Shown here: piece by piece, positions 50,503 through 64,000 of the stretch | How the letters are laid out: each line of letters begins with the position of its first letter | Numbering within the stretch: the first letter of the stretch is position 1 | From: an uncultured Flavobacteriaceae bacterium | GTDB taxonomy: Bacteria > Bacteroidota > Bacteroidia > Flavobacteriales > Weeksellaceae | Direction of reading: 5' to 3' | Assembly (NCBI GenBank): GCA_963530615.1 | Contig: CAUSDX010000003.1 | Span: 22,181 to 86,180, forward strand | Length of the DNA: 64,000 bases | The notes under the pieces: generated by a model | Seen by the model: the letters and a program-made list of their open reading frames with translations, nothing else | The model's database searches: none | Told to the model about the DNA's origin: nothing | Position numbers and translations under genes: made by a program

Positions 50503-50617
50503 ATTTTTTTATTTCATCTCTTTTATAAAACCTAAAATTTCACAATTTTTTTTGAATAAATCAGATAAGAATCTTATCTTCGCGACTAAATTTTTACAAT
50601 AAATAAAGTATTGGCTT

Positions 50618-50846
50618 TTGTTCTGCTGTCCGAAAACTGGAAATTTTCATAACAACACAGAAACAATTAGTTTAATACTCACGCCATATAGGTGTGGGTT
50701 ATTTCTATTTTGTGTTGTAAGGTAATTCCAGTACCTCGGGCAACAAAAAAGAAACTCCCATACCTTTTTTTATTGTCCACAAAAAATAAAAAGAGTTAAT
50801 TTTATTCTGTTGCCCGAAAACTGGAAACTTTCATAATAGCAACACA
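50618..50846 (+). ncRNA. structured repeat block: a ~130-nt imperfect hairpin (arms 50618-50659 / 50708-50746, apical hairpin 50677-50699) plus a third direct arm (50802-50846). Candidate ncRNA/leader or REP-like element.
   Basis: Hand alignment and pairing of the three ~42-nt arms. No ORF is present. The strand is assigned only because the downstream island genes are on the plus strand. Confidence 0.4.
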
Positions 50847-51004
50847 GGATAGGTTAGCCTATGTAAGCGGAGGGACACGAATGCGGTTCCTTTGCTGTAT
50901 AGCCCCAGCTGTAAAAGAATAAGATTCTGCCCCAGCTCTTTTTGAGTAGAATATTCACATCTCCGATAGAGGCAGCGGAGATACCTATTCTGAAAGGCAA
51001 ACAG

Positions 51005-51628
51005 ATGGAAGGCAAACAAGTAAAATCCAAACAGCGAGTAGCAGACCACGGCGAGGTATTCACTGCCGAGAGAGAGGTAAAAGCTATGGTAGATTTGGTA
51101 TGGAAAGAGTTAGACAGAGGCAGTGCAGATAAACTGATGACCGCTACTTTTTTAGAGCCATCTTGTGGTTCTGGTAATTTTCTCATAGAAATTCTCCGCA
51201 GAAAGATAGATCTCCTTAAAAAAACAAAAAAAGATAAAGCCGAATATCGGTTTTATTTGGTGATGATTGCTGGTAGTCTCTATGGTGTAGAGCTCCTTCC
51301 TGATAATGCCCAAGAGTGCCGAGAAAGACTTCTCGCAGAGTTCCAAAAAGCATATCCCAAAAAAGAAGCCGTCTATGAAAGACTGATGAAGAGCATCGCG
51401 TTCGTCATCAGCCAGAATATCATTTGCGGTGATGCCCTTACCTACACTACCCCAGAGGGGGAGCCTATCCTCTTCACCCACTGGGTAGGCACAGGCATGC
51501 CAAAAATTACCGCCAATTACTTTGACTACGGCGAACTAACGAACAAAAAAATGGGAAAGATGTCTCTCTTTGCAGAGCATACCGTGAAAGACTCCGTGAC
51601 GAAGCACTACTTGGAACTCTCAGAATAG
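51005..51628 (+). CDS. SAM-binding DNA-methyltransferase-like protein lacking catalytic motif IV
   Basis: HGEVFTAEREVKAMVDL plus motif I FLEPSCGSGNFL (51149-51184), followed by YGVELLPD and NIICGDAL. No (D/N)PP(Y/F) motif occurs before the stop. The start was placed at the ATG at 51005; the track's TTG at 50942 would read through a 7-bp hairpin (atctccg...cggagat). Confidence 0.65.
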   Translation: MEGKQVKSKQRVADHGEVFTAEREVKAMVDLVWKELDRGSADKLMTATFLEPSCGSGNFLIEILRRKIDLLKKTKKDKAEYRFYLVMIAGSLYGVELLPDNAQECRERLLAEFQKAYPKKEAVYERLMKSIAFVISQNIICGDALTYTTPEGEPILFTHWVGTGMPKITANYFDYGELTNKKMGKMSLFAEHTVKDSVTKHYLELSE

Positions 51629-51649: not shown

Positions 51650-53227
51650 ATGAAAAATTACAATCCTGACATTCTCAACTGTCTTGCCAATCTGAGCAGT
51701 GATGAGGTCTTCACTCCGCCTAACATTGCTACCAAGATGCTGGATCTCCTACCACAGAAGCTCTTCTCTGACCCTAATGCCAAGTTCTTAGACCCTTTCT
51801 CCAAATCTGGTGTATTTTTAAGAGAAATAGCCAAAAGACTGCTGAAAGGTTTAGAAAGCCAAATCCCAGAATTGCAGGAGCGTATAGACCACATCATGCA
51901 CCACCAGCTCTATGGCATAGGCATCACGGAGCTTACCGCCTACATGAGCCGCCGTAGTCTCTACTGCTCCACTCGTGCCAATAGCAAGCACTCCGTTACT
52001 CACTTCCCAGATGAAGACGGCAACATCTTCTTTGAGGAAATCTCCCACACATGGGACAAAAACAGAAAATGCATCTACTGCGGTGTGAACCAAAAAGACT
52101 TTGGGGATGAAATAAGAGAGGGACTCTCTAAATATGCCTACCCCTTTATCCATAACCTTAACCCTTACGAAAACATGAACTTTGATGTTATTATAGGAAA
52201 TCCGCCTTACCACTTAAATGTAGGGAATGATAAAGAAAAAGGAAATAGCTCAAAAGCAAAAGCTATTTATCATCTCTTTATTGACCAAGCTATCAAAATG
52301 AACCCTAAATATATTTGTATGATTATACCAAGCCGCTGGATGACAAGAAGTACAGAGGGGGTATCTGAAAAATGGATAGATAAAATGCTAAGTTCTAATA
52401 AGTTTAGAATCATACATGATTTCTTGGATGCCAAAGGTATTTTCTCCGGAACACCTCCAAAAGGTGGAGTCAATTATTTCTTATGGGACAGAGATTACAA
52501 TGGGGAGTGTCATTATTATCTATATGAAAGTGCAAATAAACCTTCCTCTTATAGATTTGAAGCATTAGATAAAAATAATTCAGGTATTATCATCAGGGAT
52601 AGGATAGCCAACGATATATTAAAGAAAATATCAGAAGTTCATCAGGATTATATGAAAAATGGGGAGAATTTTTCTTCCTTAATTAGCCCAAAGGACTTTT
52701 TTACCAATAAACAATGGCTTACTTCTAGTTGGAATGGTTTTGCTAACACTCCTAATCAAGATTATAACATCAAATATTATCCTAATAAAATACTTCTAAA
52801 AAATGGCGCTAATTTTGGCTGGATTAACATCAACCAAATCCCTAAAAATAGAGAAACTAAAGACTTACATAAGGTATTTATTCCTGCCGCAGGAGGTTCG
52901 GGAACAGATACCCATGTTTTAGGACATCCTTTTTATGGTGAGCCTAATTCAGTGTGCTCACAAACATATTTGGTAATAGGATATAATCAAGACTTTACCA
53001 AAGAAGAGTGTTTAAATATTATCTCCTACATCAATACTCGTTTTTTTAGATATTTAGTTTCTATTAAAAAGAAAACCCAAAATGGAGCAAGAGGCGTTTA
53101 CCAATTTGTCCCTATACAAGATTTTGACAAGCCATGGACAGATGCAGAGCTTTATGATAAATACAGCCTCACAGAAGAGGAAATTGCCTATATAGAGAGT
53201 TTGGTAAGTGATAAAAGAGAGGAGTAA
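51650..53227 (+). CDS. N6-adenine DNA methyltransferase, Eco57I/TaqI-like gamma class, with C-terminal target-recognition region
   Basis: 525 aa. SSDEVFTPP, a motif I variant FLDPFSKSGVFL (51785-51820), the catalytic DVIIGNPPY (NPPY at 52199-52210), and a typical C-terminal tail (PWTDAELYDKYSLTEEEIAYIE). Confidence 0.85.
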   Translation: MKNYNPDILNCLANLSSDEVFTPPNIATKMLDLLPQKLFSDPNAKFLDPFSKSGVFLREIAKRLLKGLESQIPELQERIDHIMHHQLYGIGITELTAYMSRRSLYCSTRANSKHSVTHFPDEDGNIFFEEISHTWDKNRKCIYCGVNQKDFGDEIREGLSKYAYPFIHNLNPYENMNFDVIIGNPPYHLNVGNDKEKGNSSKAKAIYHLFIDQAIKMNPKYICMIIPSRWMTRSTEGVSEKWIDKMLSSNKFRIIHDFLDAKGIFSGTPPKGGVNYFLWDRDYNGECHYYLYESANKPSSYRFEALDKNNSGIIIRDRIANDILKKISEVHQDYMKNGENFSSLISPKDFFTNKQWLTSSWNGFANTPNQDYNIKYYPNKILLKNGANFGWININQIPKNRETKDLHKVFIPAAGGSGTDTHVLGHPFYGEPNSVCSQTYLVIGYNQDFTKEECLNIISYINTRFFRYLVSIKKKTQNGARGVYQFVPIQDFDKPWTDAELYDKYSLTEEEIAYIESLVSDKREE

Positions 53228-53244: not shown

Positions 53245-53907
53245 ATGAAAAAAATAGAATTAAAAAAAGAATATTACTATGAAATATTTTGTAATAATAT
53301 GGGAGATATTCCTAACTATAAAGTAGTTAAATATTTAGGAAATCATCAAATACAATTTTTGGATAATAATGAAATTATAGAATTAGATGAAACTCTAATA
53401 ACTCATGCCGATAAGCAACTAAAAAATGGAAAAAATATTACCTATGCCAAAGGGATTTTCGGTTTTAGAGATATATCAATAGAATCCAAACATTTAGAAA
53501 AATTAGGTTTTATAAAAAAAGAAGGAAATTTATATGAAATAGATAATCCTAATATAAAAATTATGATGTATTTAGCAATATTAGGAGATGAAAACTTTAA
53601 TTACATCGGAAATATTGTAATGAATAGCAAAGAATATAATCATCTTATTCAAAAAATAGAAGATAAAGAAGAATGGAAAAATAAATATAAAATTGTCTTT
53701 AATAATACATTATACATTATTGATAATACTAATATTATAGATTATTTATACTACGGAAAGCCAATGAAGTTAAATTTAGATGCACATAATGAAATAGTAA
53801 CAATAATAAATGAAAATTTCAAAGGAATACGAAATATAAATGAATTATTTGAAAGATTAGAAAAAGAAGGAGTTAAAATAGAAAATAAAGATGAAATACT
53901 AATATGA
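53245..53907 (+). CDS. hypothetical protein (N/I/K-rich, extremely AT-rich gene)
   Basis: 220-aa ORF, 17 nt after the MTase stop on the same strand. No motif recognised. Confidence 0.55.
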   Translation: MKKIELKKEYYYEIFCNNMGDIPNYKVVKYLGNHQIQFLDNNEIIELDETLITHADKQLKNGKNITYAKGIFGFRDISIESKHLEKLGFIKKEGNLYEIDNPNIKIMMYLAILGDENFNYIGNIVMNSKEYNHLIQKIEDKEEWKNKYKIVFNNTLYIIDNTNIIDYLYYGKPMKLNLDAHNEIVTIINENFKGIRNINELFERLEKEGVKIENKDEILI

Positions 53908-53919
53908 ATGAAATACTCG

Positions 53920-54127
53920 CTCTCCACCAAGTATAAAACAAGCAAAGCGGAGTATGAAATACCCAAGACCAAGTGTAAAATAAGCGAGACCGAGTGGTAT
54001 TTTTAGAAGATTGAGCAGTAAAAATGCAAAACGGAGTGTAAAATATCAAAAACCAAACAGTATATTTAGAATAATGAGTAGTAAAAATCATTTTTTTTAG
54101 AATAATTCAAAAACTGAGTAAGAAATA
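53920..54127. repeat. 21-bp phased degenerate tandem array, about 10 units (core RAGTRTAAAAYA)
   Basis: Unit anchors at 53931, 53952, 53973, 53994, 54015, 54036, 54057 and 54078 are exactly 21 bp apart. A weaker unit lies near 54118. Confidence 0.85.
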
Positions 54128-54144
54128 TTAAAAATTAAAAAATT

Positions 54145-54801
54145 ATGACAAAGAAAATCTACAAAACCAATGAAGAAATGCTCCAAAATGCTCAAGTGCT
54201 TTTTGAGACCATAGAGAAAAACCAAGACATCGCCCAAAAATTAGAGGACTACGGCTACCCTACGGCAGAAATCGCCAAGGGCAAAAAGCTCTACACCACC
54301 GCACAAACTCTCTACGGCACCAACAAGAAAGAAACCGAAGAAGAACGCATCGCTTACCAGAAATTCAGCTCCGCTATGGACGAGCTTACCAAAACCTATG
54401 CCGAGCATCGCAACAAAGCCAAGCTTATCTTCAAGGAAAACGAAACCGCGAAAATCAGCCTTGCCCTCAAAGGAAGCCCTGCCACTGCCATCACCACACT
54501 TCTGGAAGAAATCACCCAGTTTTATAAAAACCTCCATGAGCAAGAAGCTCTCAGAACACCTCTTATCAGAGTGAAAATCACCACAGAAAACATCACCGAC
54601 CAACAGGCGAAAACCTCCCAAGTGAAAAATCTATACTCTACCTATGCACAAGAAAAAAACGAAAGTCAACAAGCGACCAAAGACAAGAATAAAGCCTTTG
54701 CCGACCTTGATAAATGGACCCGCGAACTCTACGCCTACGCCAAGTATGCCCTTGCCGAACATAGCCAGTTCTTACAAATATTTGGCAAAACCGTGAAATA
54801 A
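54145..54801 (+). CDS. hypothetical protein, predicted all-helical with an internal duplication
   Basis: 218-aa ORF in the GC-richer part of the island. Two similar ~90-aa halves are visible (LYTTAQTLYG...AMDELTKTYAEH and LYSTYAQEKN...AFADLDKWTRELYAY). No known motif recognised. Confidence 0.6.
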   Translation: MTKKIYKTNEEMLQNAQVLFETIEKNQDIAQKLEDYGYPTAEIAKGKKLYTTAQTLYGTNKKETEEERIAYQKFSSAMDELTKTYAEHRNKAKLIFKENETAKISLALKGSPATAITTLLEEITQFYKNLHEQEALRTPLIRVKITTENITDQQAKTSQVKNLYSTYAQEKNESQQATKDKNKAFADLDKWTRELYAYAKYALAEHSQFLQIFGKTVK

Positions 54802-54851: not shown

Positions 54852-57449
54852 ATGAATTTTTTTACACAAAATAACATCCCTAAAATATATGCCTACACCG
54901 ATGAGCATTTCCCAGGTATGCTAAAAGTAGGCTATACTACCAAAACCGCCGCCGAACGAGTAAAAGAGCAATACCCCGTGAAGATGCCTCGCCAGACTTG
55001 GGAAATCGTTTTAGAAGAAGTAGCCACAAGAGAAAATGGCACTTATTTTACTGACCATGACCTGCATAAAAGATTGGAAAAAAAAGGCTTTCACCGAGAA
55101 AATGGAGAATGGTTTCTCTGCACTCTGAAAGATTTAGAAGCCATCATCATAGAAGAAAAAAAAGGCATCGTCAACACTGAAAACCGCTCCCAAAACTTCA
55201 GCATGAGACCAGAGCAAAAAGAAGCCGTAGAGCGTACGGCAAGATACTTCACTGCCGTGAGAGAGGAGGGCTACACCCCTCACTTCCTTTGGAATGCCAA
55301 AATGCGTTTCGGAAAGACTTTTGCGACATATCAACTTGCCCTAAAAATGGGCTGGACTAAGGTACTCGTGCTGACCTTCAAACCTGCTGTCCTCAGTGCA
55401 TGGCGAGAAGACCTCCAAGAACATATAGACTTCCAAAACTGGCAGTTCGTTTCCAATAAAGAAGAAGACCTCAACCCAAAGGAGATTGACAAAAATAGAC
55501 CCTTCGTGTATTTCGGCTCTTTCCAAGATCATTTAGGTTTAGATAAAAAAACAGGTCTTATCAAACCTAAAAATGAATGGCTACATGATGTAGAATGGGA
55601 CTGCGTGATCTTTGATGAATACCACTTCGGTGCATGGAGAGATAAATCCAAAAAAATCTTTGAAGCCATAGAAGGTACTGATGACAAAGATAAAGAAGAA
55701 AAAAAACGACTAAAAGAAGAACTAAAAGAATTCAAAGAACAAGAAGAGGAACAAAAAGAGTTAGACACCGAAGAATCTGGAAAAACAGAAGACCTCTCCT
55801 ACTTTGATGAAAACCTCATTACCATCTCTACCAAACATTACCTCTATCTTTCAGGGACACCCTTCCGTGCCTTGGCAGATGGGGAGTTCATAGAAGAACA
55901 AATCTATAACTGGACCTACTCCGATGAGCAAAAAGCCAAAGCTGAATGGAAAGGCGAGAATAATCCCTATGCCTCTCTCCCAGAAATGATAATGATGACC
56001 TATCAGCTCCCTGGTGAAATCAAGGACATCGCCTCTAAAGGAGAATTTAATGAATTTGACCTCAACACTTTCTTCTCTACCGAAAAAGCCGAAAATGAGC
56101 ATAACAGCGAGAAAAAAACCAAAAAAGGGAAGAGAAATGAAGAAAATACCGTCTTCAAATACCAAGACGAAGTGCAAAAATGGCTAAACTTTATCCGTGG
56201 GCAGTTTTTAGGAAATGCTGAAGCACAGCTCAAACAAGGAAAAAGTAAAGCACCAATGCCTTTCTCCGATAGCCGACTTTTGGACATCTTACAGCATACC
56301 TTTTGGTTCTTACCGAATGTATCCTCTTGCTATGCCATGGCAAACCTTCTGAAAAGCCCTAAAAATCAAGCCTTTTTTGGAGATTATAACATCGTGGTCT
56401 GTGCAGGAGCAGAAGCAGGAATAGGCGTAGAAGCCCTAAAACCTGTGGCAAAAGCCATGGGCGACCCCCTCAAAACCAAAACCATCACCCTCTCCTGCGG
56501 AAAACTCACCACAGGGGTTTCTGTCTCACCTTGGTCAGGGATTTTCATGCTGAGAAACTCTTCCAGCCCAGAGACTTATTTCCAATCCATCTTCCGAGTG
56601 CAAACTCCTTGGGTCATTAAAAACCCTAATGGAGAAACTCCAAATGAGCGAGTCATCATCAAAAACAAATGTTATGTGTTTGACTTTGACCCTAACCGAG
56701 CATTGAAACAAGTGGTATCCTATGCTCAAAAACTAAATACAGACGCAAGCATACCTTCGGAAGAGAAAATAACGGAACTTATCAGTTTCTTACCTATCTT
56801 GGCTTATGATGGGGAGAATATGACAGAAATAGATGCTTTAAAAGTATTAGAAATTGCCCACAATGGGACTACCGCTACCTTACTTGCCAGAAGATGGGAA
56901 TCGGCTCTGCTCGTCAATGTAGATAATATTACCTTGGAAAAACTTCTCAAAAACCAAGAAGCCATGGACATATTAGAAAATATAGAAGGATTTAGAAATT
57001 TAGGGCAAGATATAGAAACCATCATCACTAAATCTAACGAGATAAAAAAAAATAAACAAAAAGGAACGACTAAAGATCCCAAAGAAAAAAAGAAACTTAG
57101 TGAGGAGGAAAAGGAATACAAAAGCAAAAGAAAACAGATTCAGGATAAACTTCTAAAATTCGCGACCAGAATCCCTGTATTCATGTATCTCTCCGAATAT
57201 AGAGAGCAGACTCTGAGAGATGTCATCACCCTCTTAGAACCTGAACTCTTCAAAAAAGTAACTGGGATAGAGGTGAAAGATTTTGAACTCTTAGAAAGAT
57301 TAGGACTATTCAACAGCAATCTGATGAATGATGCCGTGGAAAAATTCAAAGCCTATGAAGACAGCTCCCTTGCCTACACAGGAAAGAAAACTTATGGTAA
57401 TCTCAGAGTAGGTTTATTTGATACCACAAAAACTATTACAGAAGAATAA
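54852..57449 (+). CDS. T5orf172/GIY-YIG-like nuclease domain fused to an SF2 (restriction Res-type) helicase
   Basis: 865 aa. The N-terminus is IYAYTDEHFPGMLKVGYTT...ERVKEQ...DHDLHKRL...NGEWF (T5orf172 pattern). Helicase motifs are Walker A FGKT (55311-55319), DEYH (55614-55625), LSGTPF and motif VI QSIFRVQT. There are K/E-rich insertions. Confidence 0.8.
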   Translation: MNFFTQNNIPKIYAYTDEHFPGMLKVGYTTKTAAERVKEQYPVKMPRQTWEIVLEEVATRENGTYFTDHDLHKRLEKKGFHRENGEWFLCTLKDLEAIIIEEKKGIVNTENRSQNFSMRPEQKEAVERTARYFTAVREEGYTPHFLWNAKMRFGKTFATYQLALKMGWTKVLVLTFKPAVLSAWREDLQEHIDFQNWQFVSNKEEDLNPKEIDKNRPFVYFGSFQDHLGLDKKTGLIKPKNEWLHDVEWDCVIFDEYHFGAWRDKSKKIFEAIEGTDDKDKEEKKRLKEELKEFKEQEEEQKELDTEESGKTEDLSYFDENLITISTKHYLYLSGTPFRALADGEFIEEQIYNWTYSDEQKAKAEWKGENNPYASLPEMIMMTYQLPGEIKDIASKGEFNEFDLNTFFSTEKAENEHNSEKKTKKGKRNEENTVFKYQDEVQKWLNFIRGQFLGNAEAQLKQGKSKAPMPFSDSRLLDILQHTFWFLPNVSSCYAMANLLKSPKNQAFFGDYNIVVCAGAEAGIGVEALKPVAKAMGDPLKTKTITLSCGKLTTGVSVSPWSGIFMLRNSSSPETYFQSIFRVQTPWVIKNPNGETPNERVIIKNKCYVFDFDPNRALKQVVSYAQKLNTDASIPSEEKITELISFLPILAYDGENMTEIDALKVLEIAHNGTTATLLARRWESALLVNVDNITLEKLLKNQEAMDILENIEGFRNLGQDIETIITKSNEIKKNKQKGTTKDPKEKKKLSEEEKEYKSKRKQIQDKLLKFATRIPVFMYLSEYREQTLRDVITLLEPELFKKVTGIEVKDFELLERLGLFNSNLMNDAVEKFKAYEDSSLAYTGKKTYGNLRVGLFDTTKTITEE

Positions 57450-57471: not shown

Positions 57472-57503
57472 AAAAAAACCGCTATTGTTTATAGCGGTTT
57501 TTT
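57472..57503 (+). terminator. intrinsic terminator closing the island operon
   Basis: 8-bp stem accgctat/atagcggt flanked by an A-run and a T-run. Confidence 0.7.
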
Positions 57504-57596: not shown

Positions 57597-60500
57597 TCAA
57601 TTTGTATTTCCTCCAAAGGTAAAATTAGCTGTAATCCCTGCCCTTATCGTGGATAGCGGATATGCCGTAGAAACTTTATATTTGGTTACTAACTGATTAT
57701 AAAACAATCTCATTTGGAAATTTTGAGAAAAATTATAATCTGCAGAGAAATTTACCCCCAATATTTTTTGTCCACCCGTTACCTGTATATCTTCCTTTAA
57801 TATATTGGTAACTCTGGTTCTATTATCTCTCAAAGAAATATCCATCTTCAAGTTCAAATCACTTTTAATCGTTCTACTCTTACCTCTAATGGTCATTCTC
57901 ATCTTCAAATCTTTAATAATATACCCCAATCCAAAAATATACTCTGAACCTGAATCTTCCGTCAAGGTATAATTCTGAACTCCCAAAACATAGGCTCTAT
58001 TCTTGTTATACATCGCACGGATTTGCATGTTATTTCTCATCGTAACATCTGCCCCTAATAATGGAGCGAACTCCTCCACATAGCCCACTTGAGAAAAAGT
58101 ATAAGGATTAATATAATTATTATTCGTGTCTCTATCCGTAACTCCATTGGTTTGATAATTATAATAATCTGAGCTTGATTGAATCCCCGAAGTGGTATAA
58201 GTGGCCTTATAACCATGTAGTAAATCAAATTTTGCAAAATGTTTATTAATTATCGGCAAATTCTTTAAACCAGAATAAATTACCTGCCAATTGGGAAGTG
58301 GAAATTTAGATTTCGTAGGGTTTTCTTTACCCACTTTTTTCCCTCCTATTGCTGACTTAAATGCAGGAATCAAAACATAAGAATTTGCTAATCCATAACC
58401 ATCTACAAAGCCATCAGTGTTCAATGCACCTCCAAAACTTTGAGAAATCTCTCTTGCATTCTGCACCAGATTCATATATAAATCCCTACCATCTTTGAAG
58501 GAAGTCCCTAAAATCATATCAGAATAAGAAAAACTCATCATCTCCTTAGCATAGGATAGTTGGTCATTCACCAAAATATTATAATTCGTATGTGATAAAG
58601 AACGCGACTGATTTTTCAAAAAATTCAAGTCTATTCTTAAATCATTCATCGGTTGAATTTGAATATTCCCTGTCAAAGCTTTGGTATTCATCTGGGTGTA
58701 GGCATCTGTCATTAAATCCGATGCAGAAACCAAATTACGCTCTATCATGAGCCTACGAATATCAGATTGAGAACCTAATAAAAACCCATAAGTAGGCCCT
58801 CCGCCATTACTTCCATATCCAAAGAAATTCGGAGAAGAAAGAATCCCTGGCAATGATGTTCCACTTGTTTCATTATAAGAAATATTCGCTTGTTTAAAAG
58901 AAGTCAAAGCATACAAAATAGACTGTATTGGTGTCAACTTATTTTTGAATTGATAATTCTTCGTATTCTCTACTTTCTTTCCTTTGCTTCTCTTTTCAGC
59001 AATATCCACATTGTATTTTTCCATCACTGCAATCTCTGCTCTCCTTGCAGATATAGTTTTCTCTAAATTTTGGAAATATTTGAATTTACCTAATAAAGAA
59101 GGAATATTCACAGAAGCCGTAGCCACTGTATTTACACTATTTTGAGCTAAATTTCCTAAATCTGCCGAAGAAAGCACCGTAGAACGAGCCGACCAATTAT
59201 ACTGAATGCCTCTTCCTACTTCGGCATTGATGAAATCCAAATATGGGAAATACTCAAAAGGCAATCTATAATTCATCTGAATTCTATGATTATACAATAC
59301 TGGTCTTCCTACCTTAAACGGATCCTTAAAGATAGAACGAGTATTCAAATCTACTACCGACAAATGGTCATTGAGTGTTCTGGTATATGAATTTACATCT
59401 AATTTTAAGGATTTTGTCAAATTAAACCCTAAATTATACTGCCACCCGAAATAAAAAGTTCTCGTTCGGGTCGTTTGAAAATCTGTTCCAGCACCAGAAG
59501 TTCCCAACAATATCGCATCTATATTTCTATATTGCAATTCGTTATAATTTCTATCTATTTCCGTTCGGAAAGAAAATCTTGTAGGAATAGGATTGAGATT
59601 AAACTCTTTCACCCAATTAAGATATTTTGCAGATTTTGCGGTATCGCTTATCAGTTTATTGAATGGCCTGATATTCACTGGCTTAAAATTATAGGAATAA
59701 TCTATATATCCACGAAGATACTGACGATAATTTTTAGTGGTGTGAATATCACGATAAAAATCATCATTATATACCGCTGTAACGGATAAATTTTCTACAT
59801 CATAAAACCGCTGTTTCTTTTGTGGATTGGTTCTTTCCTTTCTCATATTAACCACTCCTATGCTTCTCTGCTGAGAGTAAGTTCTTACTACTTTTTTCAG
59901 TTCATTTTTTATAGGACTTTTACTCAGCTCTACATCATTATCAAGAGGGTTATATTTGGGGTCTTCTATACTTTGGGTATAAGAATAATTCACAGGAATT
60001 TTCATTCCAAATTTTTCTGGTAAAAATTTATCTAAATTTACCGTAGTATCAATATGAAATTGAGAAACTTCCGTTTGAGACCTCTCTGATGGCTTCTGTG
60101 TAATCGTTCCAAAACCTACCGAAGACATTGCCCCTGTGGCATTTACCAACGCAAAATCTCCTAAATTAAAATTAAGACTTGCATTTGCTGCATAACCACT
60201 TTTATTCTCTGTCCCAGAAACTCTAACCTCATTCATCCACAATACAATATCTTTAGAAATACTGCTCGCATCTTGATTTCTTACCCCCATTACAATACTG
60301 GTGATATTCCCTAAACTTGGGCGACCTTTCACATAAATTTTCTTATTCTCATTCCCATAAGAAGTATCAGTATATCTGCTATCTATTACTGCTGAAGCCC
60401 TATCTCTTCTACCTTTAATATCCGTAAATTCTTGCAAATCAAGAGCAATAGTATTTTCTGTAGGCCAAATTTCATAAGGTGTTCTTGCATTCGCTGAAGT

Positions 60501-63500
60501 ATATTTTAATGATGCTTCATATTCATAATAATTATCCGTAGCATCACTTCCTAAACGAATAAAAAATTTGGTCTTGTCATCTAATTGAGTAGAAGTTACA
60601 TTTTTCAAATCCTGAGCATGAACAAACATTTCTAACTTTTCATATCTCCTTAAATCCAAAGACACATTTTTATACAAAGCTCGAGCATCATTACTTAATC
60701 CTGTAACTTTCATATACAAAGAGCTTTCATTCGCTCTCTGTGAACCTGCATTCCCACTAAATACCTCCCTATCTATCCCTGGTGGCAACATATATGGCGG
60801 TGTCCCCATAGAGTTTTCTTCCAAATTCACACTACCTACATCTACATTAGAAGCATCTATCATTCCAAAGCCTTCATTTGTGGTATTATCTACCGCGACA
60901 GGCTTAGTGTATTTTCTCCAATCAGAACGCACCAAATCAAATGTCCCAAATCTCAAAGTAGAAGTCTCATCAAATCCTGTCAAAAGCAGTCTCGCAAAAC
61001 GAACATTATTCAAAACATCTCTGCTATGCTCCCCTGCTGTGGTATCAAACTGCCCCACAGGAATGCGGAATAGATACCATTTATTCCTTCCAGAACGCCC
61101 ATCTTCAAAGGTAGTTTGCACTTCTTTAACATCTACAATATTATTTTGACCTAAAACTAAATTATTTCTATTTAAATCAATAGTATATTGATTATAATTT
61201 TCATATTGGTCAAGGTTATAATCCCCATTAATATCTTCTACATCAGGCGTTTGCGATGACACCTCCAAAGGCCCAGAAGCGGAATTCCCATCTGGATTCC
61301 TAAAATAACGATAACGCTCCACCACAGAACTTGCCATGCTTCCTTGAAATCTATCAGACAGAAAATACACAAAATCATCAGATGCTGGGTCTAACTCATT
61401 GGTAACTGGATTCACAAACGATGTTCCAAATTTCTCATGCTCACCTGCATTATTTAATCCATCATACCCCACATCTTGAGCCTTTCTGTCAGCCCCTTCC
61501 GAAGAAAAAGTATAAAGTATAGGTGATACACTTGGTTGGGTTCCCCAGTTGGTCGTTGTCGTTACCGAAGGAGATGAATCCGTAGGTAATCCATTTTCAT
61601 ATTGTAAATGACCATCTTTCAAAACATCTTCAGAAATATTCCCTAAATGAAGCAATAATTTAGGATTTGCTCCCAAATTTCCTCCATCAGCATAAGGGTC
61701 CATCATCCAAAATTCTACATATTCTATATTAGAAGTTGTAAAATTAGACACCGATATTGGTCTCATCAGCCCTGCCCATCTATCTTGAGTAGCTTCATGA
61801 TTAGGATTAAAATTATAAGGACCTCTTTCCTTTGGATAATAAGAAATATCAAAAGTATTGGTAAAAGTTTCTTCTCCCGCTACATAATCTCTAGTATTAT
61901 ACAACTCACTGAGTCTCACTCTACGAGACATGTGATTAGACACGCTTTGCGTAGAAATACCATTAGGTGCAGTGCCACCAATGCCATAAAATCTCGGGTC
62001 AATATTATACCACGAAATAAGCCCTCTTCCATAGCCATTTACAATACTATTATTTACTCCTGCATTCCTAAATAATGCATCTCTTGTATTTTGTTCAGGT
62101 TTGGAAGCTAACCCCCACATTGCAGGGTCTTTGAGGGATATTTTAGAAGAACTTTGCTCAAAATCATCTATATAAGACTGGTTCTGAGCATTTTTACTCT
62201 GCCCTGGTATCAAATATGCAGCTTCCACTCTGAAATTTATATTTGATGGAGCACTAGTCTTAATCCAAGGAATTTTATTGGTAAATCTTGTCAAGAATGG
62301 AGCTTCATTACTATACAAAACATTAACTCCCAACATGGTGTTATTCACAGCCTCTTGTCCATACTGCACTTTTTGAGTTAATGGCGTCTCTCTATAATTA
62401 ACTGCTGTGGCACCTATTAACAAATTTTCATTGATTTTCCTTTCTAAATTTAATCCCAAAAATCTCTTTCTTTGAGTATTAAAATTTAATTGATTTTCAA
62501 GACTAATGTTTATTGCCTGACCAGATTGTTTTATCGTTTCATTAATAATTGTAACACTCCCTAACAAATAATCTACCGTATAATCTACCCCCTCTATCAA
62601 GGTTACTCCATTAGAGGTTACTTTTACAGAGCCTTGCGGAATATTGATTGCTCCCAAAGAAATTCCAGAAGATGATGTGCCTTTATACCTTCCTTCTAAA
62701 GTATATCTTTGAGCCAAATTATTCTGTGCTGCTACGGATTTTAATTGACGATAAAGATCAGTAAAAACATACCGAGGATTATTAGCCCCCAATACATTTT
62801 CTAAATGCCTACCGAAAGGTTGAGTTTTCGTAAAAATCAATTTTCCGTTTTCTCTGTCAATGGTCAAACCTTCCACCATATCAAATAATCCATCTCCATA
62901 AGTCCCATTAGAATTTTGCTGAAAATCCCCATTAAGATTCAATCTATCCCAATTGAATAAACTCAACAAATTAGTATCCTGCACATTCGTATTTGGTAAA
63001 TAATTAACCTTACCATTATTGGGGTCTCTATAGTACACTCCCATCAAGAAATCGCTGGTGTCTATATTCGCCGTATTAAGAGAATAAATATTCTTCATCA
63101 TCAAGTCCCACATCGGAGAACTTGTTTTCATGGAAGTATTTGGCTTTAATAATTTGGTAATCAACACAGAAGAATTATCCTCTGAAAATTCACCGACTTT
63201 ATATACATTAGAATCTCCACTAACAGTATATGAAAATGACACAGCCAAAAGCTGATTATCATTTAGCCTTTGGTTCAATGAAATATACCCTAATTTCGGA
63301 TGGAATTTATACTCGTTTTCATTTAATTTTCTTGCTCTTCTCGTGAAAACAAAATTCTCTCCTTCTTGGTAAGGCTGATTTCCTCCCGCAGTGATGTCAT
63401 ACAAAGACTGCCCTTTTATGCTATTATAAGCAGAAGTTACATCTCTAATTCCTGCTAAATTTGTAATATCTTGATAAAGATTGTTCTGTGAATTACTTGG

Positions 63501-64000
63501 GTAGGTAGTTGTTGCCATTCCTTCTCCAAGGTCTCTTACCGCCACAATACCTTTTTGACTTTCCACATTGATAGTACCTTGATTAAGCACCCAAACTTCC
63601 ATTCTAGTAATGCTAATTTTAGAATTTACCAATGGATATTGGCTTAATGCACCATCATAAGCATTATTAAAATAATGCCCTATAAAGAAATGCTGATTGT
63701 CTTCATAATCTACTGCATTCAGCTTAAAAGTTTGTGAAACACCACCATTCTGAGCAACTACCGTTCTTGACTCTCCCTGCTGTTGAGAAAGCACCAATGT
63801 TCCCTTAGTTTTCCCTAATTGAAACTCTGTTTTTACTCCAAAAAGAGATTCAGAACCGCGAATTAAACTTGTAGAAAGAGGCATATTGATATTCCCAAAT
63901 TCTACTTTTTTGATAATTCTATCCTCTGGATCTTTACTTTCTTTATTATTTGATGAATTGTTTTGAGCATTTCTCGAAGAACTTCCCCTTGGTTGCCACA
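57597..64000 (-). CDS. sprA: T9SS translocon / gliding-motility cell-surface protein SprA (partial, N-terminus outside window)
   Basis: The giant ORF is longer than 2130 aa within the window. The frame stays open upstream of the track's ATG (63884) to position 64000 (hand-translated ...KKVEFGNINMPLSTSLIRGSESLFG). Size and composition fit the flavobacterial SprA beta-barrel. Confidence 0.8.
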   Translation of the reverse strand, partial: WQPRGSSSRNAQNNSSNNKESKDPEDRIIKKVEFGNINMPLSTSLIRGSESLFGVKTEFQLGKTKGTLVLSQQQGESRTVVAQNGGVSQTFKLNAVDYEDNQHFFIGHYFNNAYDGALSQYPLVNSKISITRMEVWVLNQGTINVESQKGIVAVRDLGEGMATTTYPSNSQNNLYQDITNLAGIRDVTSAYNSIKGQSLYDITAGGNQPYQEGENFVFTRRARKLNENEYKFHPKLGYISLNQRLNDNQLLAVSFSYTVSGDSNVYKVGEFSEDNSSVLITKLLKPNTSMKTSSPMWDLMMKNIYSLNTANIDTSDFLMGVYYRDPNNGKVNYLPNTNVQDTNLLSLFNWDRLNLNGDFQQNSNGTYGDGLFDMVEGLTIDRENGKLIFTKTQPFGRHLENVLGANNPRYVFTDLYRQLKSVAAQNNLAQRYTLEGRYKGTSSSGISLGAINIPQGSVKVTSNGVTLIEGVDYTVDYLLGSVTIINETIKQSGQAINISLENQLNFNTQRKRFLGLNLERKINENLLIGATAVNYRETPLTQKVQYGQEAVNNTMLGVNVLYSNEAPFLTRFTNKIPWIKTSAPSNINFRVEAAYLIPGQSKNAQNQSYIDDFEQSSSKISLKDPAMWGLASKPEQNTRDALFRNAGVNNSIVNGYGRGLISWYNIDPRFYGIGGTAPNGISTQSVSNHMSRRVRLSELYNTRDYVAGEETFTNTFDISYYPKERGPYNFNPNHEATQDRWAGLMRPISVSNFTTSNIEYVEFWMMDPYADGGNLGANPKLLLHLGNISEDVLKDGHLQYENGLPTDSSPSVTTTTNWGTQPSVSPILYTFSSEGADRKAQDVGYDGLNNAGEHEKFGTSFVNPVTNELDPASDDFVYFLSDRFQGSMASSVVERYRYFRNPDGNSASGPLEVSSQTPDVEDINGDYNLDQYENYNQYTIDLNRNNLVLGQNNIVDVKEVQTTFEDGRSGRNKWYLFRIPVGQFDTTAGEHSRDVLNNVRFARLLLTGFDETSTLRFGTFDLVRSDWRKYTKPVAVDNTTNEGFGMIDASNVDVGSVNLEENSMGTPPYMLPPGIDREVFSGNAGSQRANESSLYMKVTGLSNDARALYKNVSLDLRRYEKLEMFVHAQDLKNVTSTQLDDKTKFFIRLGSDATDNYYEYEASLKYTSANARTPYEIWPTENTIALDLQEFTDIKGRRDRASAVIDSRYTDTSYGNENKKIYVKGRPSLGNITSIVMGVRNQDASSISKDIVLWMNEVRVSGTENKSGYAANASLNFNLGDFALVNATGAMSSVGFGTITQKPSERSQTEVSQFHIDTTVNLDKFLPEKFGMKIPVNYSYTQSIEDPKYNPLDNDVELSKSPIKNELKKVVRTYSQQRSIGVVNMRKERTNPQKKQRFYDVENLSVTAVYNDDFYRDIHTTKNYRQYLRGYIDYSYNFKPVNIRPFNKLISDTAKSAKYLNWVKEFNLNPIPTRFSFRTEIDRNYNELQYRNIDAILLGTSGAGTDFQTTRTRTFYFGWQYNLGFNLTKSLKLDVNSYTRTLNDHLSVVDLNTRSIFKDPFKVGRPVLYNHRIQMNYRLPFEYFPYLDFINAEVGRGIQYNWSARSTVLSSADLGNLAQNSVNTVATASVNIPSLLGKFKYFQNLEKTISARRAEIAVMEKYNVDIAEKRSKGKKVENTKNYQFKNKLTPIQSILYALTSFKQANISYNETSGTSLPGILSSPNFFGYGSNGGGPTYGFLLGSQSDIRRLMIERNLVSASDLMTDAYTQMNTKALTGNIQIQPMNDLRIDLNFLKNQSRSLSHTNYNILVNDQLSYAKEMMSFSYSDMILGTSFKDGRDLYMNLVQNAREISQSFGGALNTDGFVDGYGLANSYVLIPAFKSAIGGKKVGKENPTKSKFPLPNWQVIYSGLKNLPIINKHFAKFDLLHGYKATYTTSGIQSSSDYYNYQTNGVTDRDTNNNYINPYTFSQVGYVEEFAPLLGADVTMRNNMQIRAMYNKNRAYVLGVQNYTLTEDSGSEYIFGLGYIIKDLKMRMTIRGKSRTIKSDLNLKMDISLRDNRTRVTNILKEDIQVTGGQKILGVNFSADYNFSQNFQMRLFYNQLVTKYKVSTAYPLSTIRAGITANFTFGGNTN

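Follow-up and report, generated by a model that had tools for sequence, protein, structure and literature searches.

A T5orf172/GIY-YIG-type domain on an SF2 motor: the predicted R subunit of a three-gene restriction-modification-type system in an uncultured Flavobacteriaceae bacterium

Introduction

To our knowledge, all well-studied ATP-driven restriction motors, namely those of the Type I, Type ISP and Type III systems, carry PD-(D/E)XK nucleases. Type I HsdR and Type III Res proteins have in common a superfamily 2 (SF2) motor fused to a nuclease and a methylase that is encoded separately. The PD-(D/E)XK nuclease is C-terminal in Res, whose partner is a Mod-type methylase, and the nuclease precedes the motor in HsdR and in the Type ISP enzymes. 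Here we describe a motor gene with a nuclease-type domain of another kind, located at positions 54852..57449 (+ strand) of a 64,000-nucleotide stretch of DNA from an uncultured Flavobacteriaceae bacterium (contig CAUSDX010000003.1 of assembly GCA_963530615.1), hereafter the window. Its 865-residue product, hereafter R, combines an N-terminal T5orf172/GIY-YIG-type domain with an SF2 motor, and we consider it likely to be the R subunit of an ATP-dependent defence system of the restriction-modification type that is encoded by three genes, the other two specifying a half-methylase and an Eco57I-type methylase, hereafter M.

Several described systems combine similar modules. The Type ISP enzymes LlaGI and LlaBIII (PDB 4xqk; PMC3553950, PMC2790908) are single polypeptides without a half-methylase, in which an Mrr-type PD-(D/E)XK nuclease is followed by an SF2 double-strand DNA motor, a coupler and a γ-class adenine methylase with its target-recognition domain (TRD). 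Their authors noted that relatives use other nucleases, "e.g. GIY-YIG" (PMC3553950). A YeeA-type methylase with a neighboring helicase and a GIY-YIG protein was proposed by Morgan et al. to form a Type I-like restriction-modification system (PMC2731913). In this DnmA(YeeA)-YeeB-YeeC cluster, which sits in defence islands, an adenine methylase, an SF2 helicase and a T5orf172/GIY-YIG protein are encoded together; the nuclease and the helicase are separate proteins, YeeC carries its T5orf172 domain at the C-terminus, and the methylase is large and MmeI-like (PMC2731913, PMC9973331).

The T5orf172 domain itself has been linked to DNA cleavage in Odn (Gp88) of the vibriophage ICP1, a T5orf172 protein that keeps the catalytic Arg and Glu and cuts double-stranded DNA, and of which the E180A variant was taken as the catalytic-dead version (PMC8263062). 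A RepA-like DNA-binding domain directs Odn to its target; the protein has neither motor nor methylase, and acts for the phage against a satellite (PMC8263062). Single chains with a motor are represented in PADLOC by the REBASE-derived model REase_MTase_IIG (PDLC03626, 1359 positions), which is labelled Type IIG despite its ATP motor. We know of no biochemical characterisation behind this model.

Domain Architecture of R

The R gene is a single open frame, intact over its 865 codons, at the coordinates given in an earlier annotation made from the letters of the window alone (hereafter the sequence-only reading), and it is present in a single copy in the 1.53-Mb genome. Pfam searches with the whole protein gave matches to T5orf172 (residues 12-99, E 5.9e-9, 36.8 bits for a cut-off of 20), MUG113 (residues 24-99, E 7e-7) and ResIII (residues 116-273, E 1.7e-6, 28.5 bits), well outside what chance would give, while positions 151-803 of PDLC03626 were matched with an E-value of 4e-34; no NCBIfam model matched the protein. 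The full-length AlphaFold model has a mean predicted local distance difference test (pLDDT) score of 74.

The T5orf172/GIY-YIG-type domain, delimited by the Pfam match, the invariant residues and the predicted fold, covers residues 11-104 (54882..55163, +). The motifs from which the sequence-only reading had recognized it were located at residues 12-16 (IYAYT), 24-30 (LKVGYTT), 35-40 (ERVKEQ), 68-75 (DHDLHKRL) and 84-88 (NGEWF). In an alignment of 57 sequences that span more than 20 phyla, archaea among them, the invariant residues of this domain are P10, Y13, K25, G27, T29, R36, D68, H72 and E86. Three of them, Y13, R36 and E86, were assigned to the catalytic Tyr, Arg and Glu positions on the basis of the Pfam match, a profile comparison by hhalign and the alignment published for Odn (PMC8263062). 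AlphaFold modelled the domain with pLDDT values of about 86-94, in the full-length protein as well as in isolation, with the topology β-β-α-β-α-α (strands 11-17, 20-29 and 50-57; helices 33-40, 68-77 and 92-104), that is, a three-stranded sheet with flanking helices as in the GIY-YIG-type α/β fold.

The relatives tell the same story, with all 22 N-domains of the family that were searched matching PF10544 (T5orf172, GIY-YIG clan; best E 4.3e-14). When the isolated domain was compared by Foldseek with BFVD, a comparison of a predicted model with predicted viral models, it retrieved T5orf172 proteins from an E-value of 6e-5 (TM-scores of 0.55-0.63) and annotated GIY-YIG endonucleases of Fadolivirus (E 1.5e-3) and of Mycobacterium phage Heath (E 2.5e-3). 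In the hhalign comparison, which used the GIY-YIG domains of UvrC from the window's own genome and from relatives, IYAY, KVGYT and R36 of the N-domain profile fell on GVY, YVG and Arg in the canonical register, with a weak score (E 0.05, 35 columns). Membership of the T5orf172 family is firm, and the link to the classical GIY-YIG nucleases is supported by the fold prediction and the motif register and otherwise comes from the Pfam clan assignment. The N-terminal T5orf172/GIY-YIG-type domain claimed from the letters alone is borne out by the Pfam match, the invariant Tyr, Arg and Glu and the fold models, cleavage itself being predicted.

The ATPase motor, of Snf2-like/ResIII type, spans residues 116-612 (55197..56687, +) according to its motif positions and to Foldseek. 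The helicase motifs, all on the + strand, are motif I FGKT (residues 153-156; 55308-55319), motif Ia TFKPAV (55374-55391), motif II DEYH (residues 255-258; 55614-55625), motif III LSGTPF (residues 333-338; 55848-55865), motif V CGKLTTG (56496-56516) and motif VI QSIFRVQT (residues 578-585; 56583-56606); motifs I, II, III and VI are those that the sequence-only reading had listed. The SF2 motifs of R are all invariant in the 57 sequences. Foldseek searches of the PDB with the full-length model gave Chd1 (E 3.8e-10), the Type ISP enzyme LlaBIII (4xqk_A, E 1.0e-9), SauUSI, an ATP-dependent restriction enzyme (E 1.4e-9), and ZorD (E 3.0e-9), with the Snf2-type remodellers ALC1 and ISWI also among the matches. 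These structural similarities to Snf2-type remodellers, LlaBIII, SauUSI and ZorD point to a motor that would translocate on double-stranded DNA, in contrast to a helicase that unwinds it.

The C-terminal domain (residues 613-865; 56688..57446, +) is strongly conserved among the 57 sequences and, in the AlphaFold model, is all-helical, with one charged, disordered, Lys/Glu-rich linker and no α/β nuclease core; from its model and conservation it is predicted to be the region that docks on, or couples to, the methylase. T5orf172 was the only nuclease-type match of R, with no PD-(D/E)XK, HNH or other nuclease family found by Pfam in the whole protein, or in residues 590-865 at E-values up to 10. 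The sequence-only reading was right to see no PD-(D/E)XK motif, and its assignment to R of a nuclease fold different from that of the classical restriction motors is supported. It had also considered that a PD-(D/E)XK or HNH domain might be hidden in the C-terminus. A second nuclease at that place was rejected, as the relaxed search returned noise only (Sec15_C, Seryl_tRNA_N) and the model is all-helical.

Methylase Partners and Fused Relatives

Upstream of R, the window encodes two proteins related to adenine methylases. The first gene (51005..51628, +) specifies a half-methylase of 207 residues, identified from its translation and by the N-terminal part of the Pfam family MmeI_Mtase, which has canonical motifs X (GEVFT), I (EPSCGSGNF), II and III and lacks NPPY and a target-recognition domain. 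The second (51650..53227, +) specifies M, an Eco57I-type γ-class N6-adenine methylase of 525 residues with a TRD (Pfam Eco57I, E 8.3e-33; its MmeI_Mtase match is below the Pfam cut-off, at 23.1 versus 27 bits). In M, NPPY and the target-recognition region are present, and motif I is degenerate (DPFSKSGVF). Positions 863-1356 of PDLC03626 are matched by M (E 9.5e-42). Since R and M match consecutive parts of this model, the window appears to encode the same protein family in two pieces.

To compare gene neighborhoods, open reading frames (ORFs) were called in 80 related loci, the best 80 of at least 593, and searched with the proteins that surround R in the window. A homologue of M was found upstream of the motor gene in 70 of the 80 loci. 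The small half-methylase has a homologue in 60, as a separate gene of about 210-245 codons directly 5' of the methylase gene, and most of the other loci are contigs cut off upstream. The common layout consists of three abutting or overlapping genes, with a half-methylase of about 220 residues, a methylase of about 505 residues and the motor last, as in locus L004 (5812-6471, 6464-7999 and 7992-10484). The half-methylase gene was also considered as a pseudogene fragment, an idea that was discarded given its conservation as a separate gene. This protein of about 220 residues (51005-51628 in the window) is a third conserved component, which the sequence-only reading had left unlinked to the system.

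Further evidence comes from single chains of 1193-1464 residues that carry T5orf172, ResIII and Eco57I, in that order. In one of them, P0212, residues 11-840 of R align with residues 4-749 and residues 7-517 of M with residues 757-1190; in another, P0253, M aligns end to end with residues 864-1325 (E 2e-49). In such fused relatives, about 8-30 residues separate the helical domain that is C-terminal in R from the N-terminus of the methylase. The nuclease-motor-methylase fusions argue strongly that R and M would act as one machine, and they suggest that the helical C-terminus of R may be the interface with, or the coupler to, M. The pairing of the motor with the upstream methylase, as proposed in the sequence-only reading, is thus supported both by adjacency in the 70 loci and by fusion. 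As the single-chain relatives have the same module order as Type ISP enzymes, the window most probably holds a split form of a Type ISP-like enzyme in which the nuclease has been swapped. Some other relatives, P0129 (1077 residues), P0125 (1094 residues) and P0168 (1122 residues), have about 250 extra residues before T5orf172 or after the C-terminal domain, and no Pfam family was found in these extensions.

The methylase gene is not uniform in composition, its G+C content dropping from 0.44 to 0.33 just 3' of the NPPY codons. Identity among loci is lower for the methylase (38-47%) than for the motor (56-62%). Together, the G+C drop and the lower conservation of the methylase suggest that its target-recognition half may have been exchanged.

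Distribution of the Family

The R family is large. A word-indexed homologue search gave at least 8000 matches, and an exhaustive HMMER search yielded 3563 clusters (50%-identity representatives, E up to 1e-3); in species-representative genomes, at least 593 loci were found. The best 120 homologues are all 824-865 residues long with the same Pfam pair, T5orf172 and ResIII. Their names in the source databases include "GIY-YIG nuclease family protein", "DEAD/DEAH box helicase family protein", "restriction endonuclease" and "Type III restriction enzyme, res subunit/T5orf172 domain". The family is uncharacterised biochemically, yet it is already annotated by NCBI and PADLOC and hinted at in the literature.

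Motor proteins of this family occur in more than 20 phyla, archaea included. The best 80 loci encode proteins with 55-73% identity to R, and their hosts belong to Bacteroidota, Chloroflexota, Proteobacteria, Planctomycetota, Actinobacteria, Clostridia, Spirochaetes, Elusimicrobia, Patescibacteria and several archaeal lineages. In the taxonomic family of the window, by contrast, a motor match was found in only 6 of 61 genomes. Strong conservation together with a patchy occurrence across domains marks a module that moves horizontally, as the T5orf172-motor cassette would do. Composition sets the cassette apart in its present host, with G+C contents of 0.40 for the motor gene and of 0.40-0.44 for the core genes versus 0.31-0.33 for their surroundings, and by this contrast the cassette is a foreign island in the window.

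Comparison with Described Systems

R is not a member of the Type ISP, Type I or Type III systems, because defining features of each were tested for and are lacking in R and its operon. With Type ISP enzymes, the likeness is one of module order in the fused relatives and of motor structure, the LlaBIII match being structural only, and HMMER detected no sequence-level similarity between R and LlaGI or LlaBIII. R has a T5orf172/GIY-YIG-type domain instead of an Mrr-type nuclease, with no PD-(D/E)XK match even at a relaxed threshold, and in the window R and M are separate genes accompanied by a conserved half-methylase. R matches the ResIII family of Pfam as Type I and Type III motors do. However, the operon gave no HSDR_N or Methylase_S match and contains no HsdS gene, the TRD being within the methylase. 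In contrast to Type III Res, R has its T5orf172 domain at the N-terminus, a helical C-terminus and an Eco57I-type partner. The sequence-only reading had regarded the domain order of R as different from that of the classical motors; this holds with respect to Type III Res, but Type I HsdR and Type ISP enzymes share the order of R.

The DnmA-YeeB-YeeC cluster is set apart from the window by its description: in the window the nuclease-type domain and the motor form one chain, the methylase is of the Eco57I type, and there is a half-methylase. Odn shares with R the nuclease domain family and the conserved Arg and Glu, and differs from it in having no motor or methylase partner.

Proposed Mechanism and Alternative Explanations

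The reading of R as the restriction subunit of a three-gene system is carried by its domain architecture, the invariance of catalytic-type residues, the predicted folds, the conserved operon, the fusions and the patchy, mobile distribution. The predicted parts of the scheme are the assembly of a complex, translocation driven by ATP, cleavage and the way it depends on DNA methylation, and the part played by the half-methylase. The methylase would read a short, probably asymmetric site and methylate host DNA, and R would dock on it through the conserved helical C-terminal domain. At an unmethylated site, the Snf2-like motor would hydrolyse ATP and translocate along double-stranded DNA, and the N-terminal T5orf172/GIY-YIG-type domain would cut at a distance from the site, probably upon stalling or upon the collision of two motors. 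Cleavage by collision or stalling is modelled here on the Type ISP and Type I enzymes; Type ISP enzymes cut upon the collision of motors translocating from head-to-head sites and methylate one strand. Because motif I of the full methylase is degenerate, the half-methylase may be its S-adenosylmethionine (SAM)-binding partner and would supply or stabilise SAM binding, which is the least secure point of the scheme. We lean, with only a little more confidence than not, toward a distinct ATP-dependent restriction class, in which a GIY-YIG-type nuclease sits on a Snf2-like translocase, the methylase needs a separate SAM-binding half-methylase, and a slot between the M and R genes carries unrelated defence passengers.

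Several points weigh against a restriction function. The literature searched gave no biochemical or genetic data on the T5orf172-SF2 motor family, and neither restriction nor phage defence was seen with DnmA-YeeB-YeeC, the comparable three-gene cluster of B. subtilis (PMC9973331). In the motor, motif VI has one conserved Arg only in the 57 sequences. The isolated N-domain found no match in the PDB by Foldseek at E-values below 0.6, the GIY-YIG chains of Slx1 being the only recurring family in that search (best TM-score 0.53, E 1.5), the profile comparison with UvrC is weak, and searches of the PDB with R, one by phmmer and two with profiles, returned chance matches only. The sequence-only reading had proposed to compare an AlphaFold model of the domain with GIY-YIG structures. 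This comparison succeeded with annotated GIY-YIG models in BFVD, but nothing significant was found among solved structures. Lastly, the insertion of passenger genes might have uncoupled the expression of R from that of M.

The B. subtilis findings raise the question of whether the cassette could be a relic or a non-restricting element, composed of an orphan or regulatory methylase and of a motor-nuclease that is inactive or has a housekeeping role, as for DnmA-YeeB-YeeC. That trio neither protected against three phages nor affected transformation (PMC9973331), and the operon of the window is interrupted by passenger genes. However, all three genes are intact and keep every conserved motif of the family, 56-75% identity across phyla together with a patchy distribution argues for an active, selected and mobile module, and homologues of the trio in Vibrio crassostreae were reported to affect phage sensitivity, as cited in PMC9973331. 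We regard a relic as unlikely. A different doubt concerns the N-terminal domain, which might bind DNA or act as a sensor without cutting, so that invaders would be blocked without cleavage, as in bacteriophage exclusion (BREX), or a host nuclease would be recruited. UniProt and InterPro do label the domain "T5 Orf172 DNA-binding", some canonical GIY-YIG residues are missing from T5orf172 (PMC8263062), and the lack of a significant match to solved GIY-YIG structures fits the same view. It is nevertheless quite improbable in the light of the invariant Tyr, Arg and Glu at the catalytic positions in the 57 sequences, of the double-strand cleavage demonstrated for a T5orf172 protein (PMC8263062), and of the conserved operon, which encodes no other nuclease.

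A homing-type endonuclease, spreading the cassette rather than restricting DNA, is the explanation to which we attach the least weight and which we consider very improbable. Many T5orf172 genes of phages are putative homing endonuclease genes (PMC8263062, PMC10448857), and the cassette is highly mobile; yet in every case its T5orf172 domain shares a chain with a large ATP motor, the linkage to a methylase is strict, and single-chain nuclease-motor-methylase forms exist, an arrangement that belongs to restriction enzymes and not to homing endonucleases.

If R is indeed the restriction subunit of such a system, a new combination of nuclease and motor and a new two-chain assembly of an adenine methylase would be at hand. 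Nucleases of the GIY-YIG type usually act as nicking monomers, and how one would produce double-strand breaks when mounted on a translocase is a mechanistic question. Given the abundance of the family, its recognition sites and its defence spectrum bear on gene flow and on how readily non-model bacteria can be transformed, and they may also be of use as a source of new enzymes. The family is abundant and mechanistically interesting, yet it would not surprise a restriction-enzyme specialist, and the window on its own is ordinary, contributing a further intact member that has low-complexity insertions peculiar to its lineage and two passengers.

The Slot between the M and R Genes

The sequence-only reading had placed the methylase gene 1.6 kb upstream of R. 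The distance is right, the stop codon of M being at 53227, 1625 nucleotides before the start codon of R, but the spacing does not belong to the design of the system, as it is taken up by two passengers in a variable slot. A functional role of the spacing was rejected for the same reason, since M and R genes overlap in most loci and the gap holds variable passengers. The first passenger (53245..53907, +) is an AT-rich orphan open frame of 220 codons with a G+C content of 0.205, for which no family was found in Pfam, PADLOC, NCBIfam or PHROGs; a homologue occurs in a single one of the 80 loci, the closest one (L001), in the same slot. The second (53920..54801, +) is composed of an array of 21-bp repeats (53920-54127) and a PQLLE-family gene (54145-54801; NCBIfam NF052641, E 4.1e-59), and no homologue of the latter was found in the 80 related loci. 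As PQLLE is absent from all of them and the orphan is common to the window and L001, PQLLE looks like the more recent insertion. The R gene starts 50 nucleotides after PQLLE, with no terminator between them.

Extra same-strand genes lie between M and R in about 23 of the 80 loci, so that the cassette resembles Type I hsd operons, which have a passenger slot at this place. Insertions were mapped in L002 (6160-7955), L021 (6963-7985), L048 (5549-6565), L018 (2993-4108), L079 (6666-7946), L003 (6447-7892), L051 (7112-7969) and L075 (5181-6518). The slot contents that were identified comprise RhuM (2 loci), DUF1016/YhcG (2 loci), an AAA_15 and DUF4276 pair (PARIS-like), Schlafen/AlbA_2, Bro-N and a Tn5-type transposase. 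Passengers of these families are the usual hitchhikers in Type I hsd operons.

Low-Complexity Segments and Flanking Sequences

The three Lys/Glu-rich stretches of R that had been noticed in the sequence-only reading are present at residues 278-303, between helicase motifs II and III (55683..55760, +), at residues 412-432, where Asn is also frequent (56085..56147, +), and at residues 732-761, in the C-terminal domain (57045..57134, +). All three are low-confidence, disordered or long-helix surface segments of the AlphaFold model. The first forms a long helix of low pLDDT, and its length varies among relatives; the second has pLDDT values below 50 and is a gap in 11 of 11 relatives of alignment A1. 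With the relatives gapped there, the stretch at residues 412-432 and part of the first one are lineage-specific insertions. The third is a charged linker found in all relatives, and around it the model has a disordered segment (residues 713-749) followed by a long helix (residues 751-780).

In the non-coding region 5' of the half-methylase gene (50575-50946), two similar segments, ttctgctgtccgaaaactggaaattttcataacaacacag and ttctgttgcccgaaaactggaaactttcataatagcaacacagg, were observed, and a terminator-like hairpin lies upstream of the same gene at 50677-50699. A promoter scan gave 26 matches to the σ70 consensus, a number close to the 20.3 expected from shuffled sequences, this consensus being unsuited to the promoters of Bacteroidota. 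At the other end of the cassette, a giant ORF of 2095 codons (57597-63884, - strand) converges on the R gene, and the two share a strong hairpin terminator of 13 pairs with a T-run (57473..57503, +), located 24 nucleotides past the stop codon of R.

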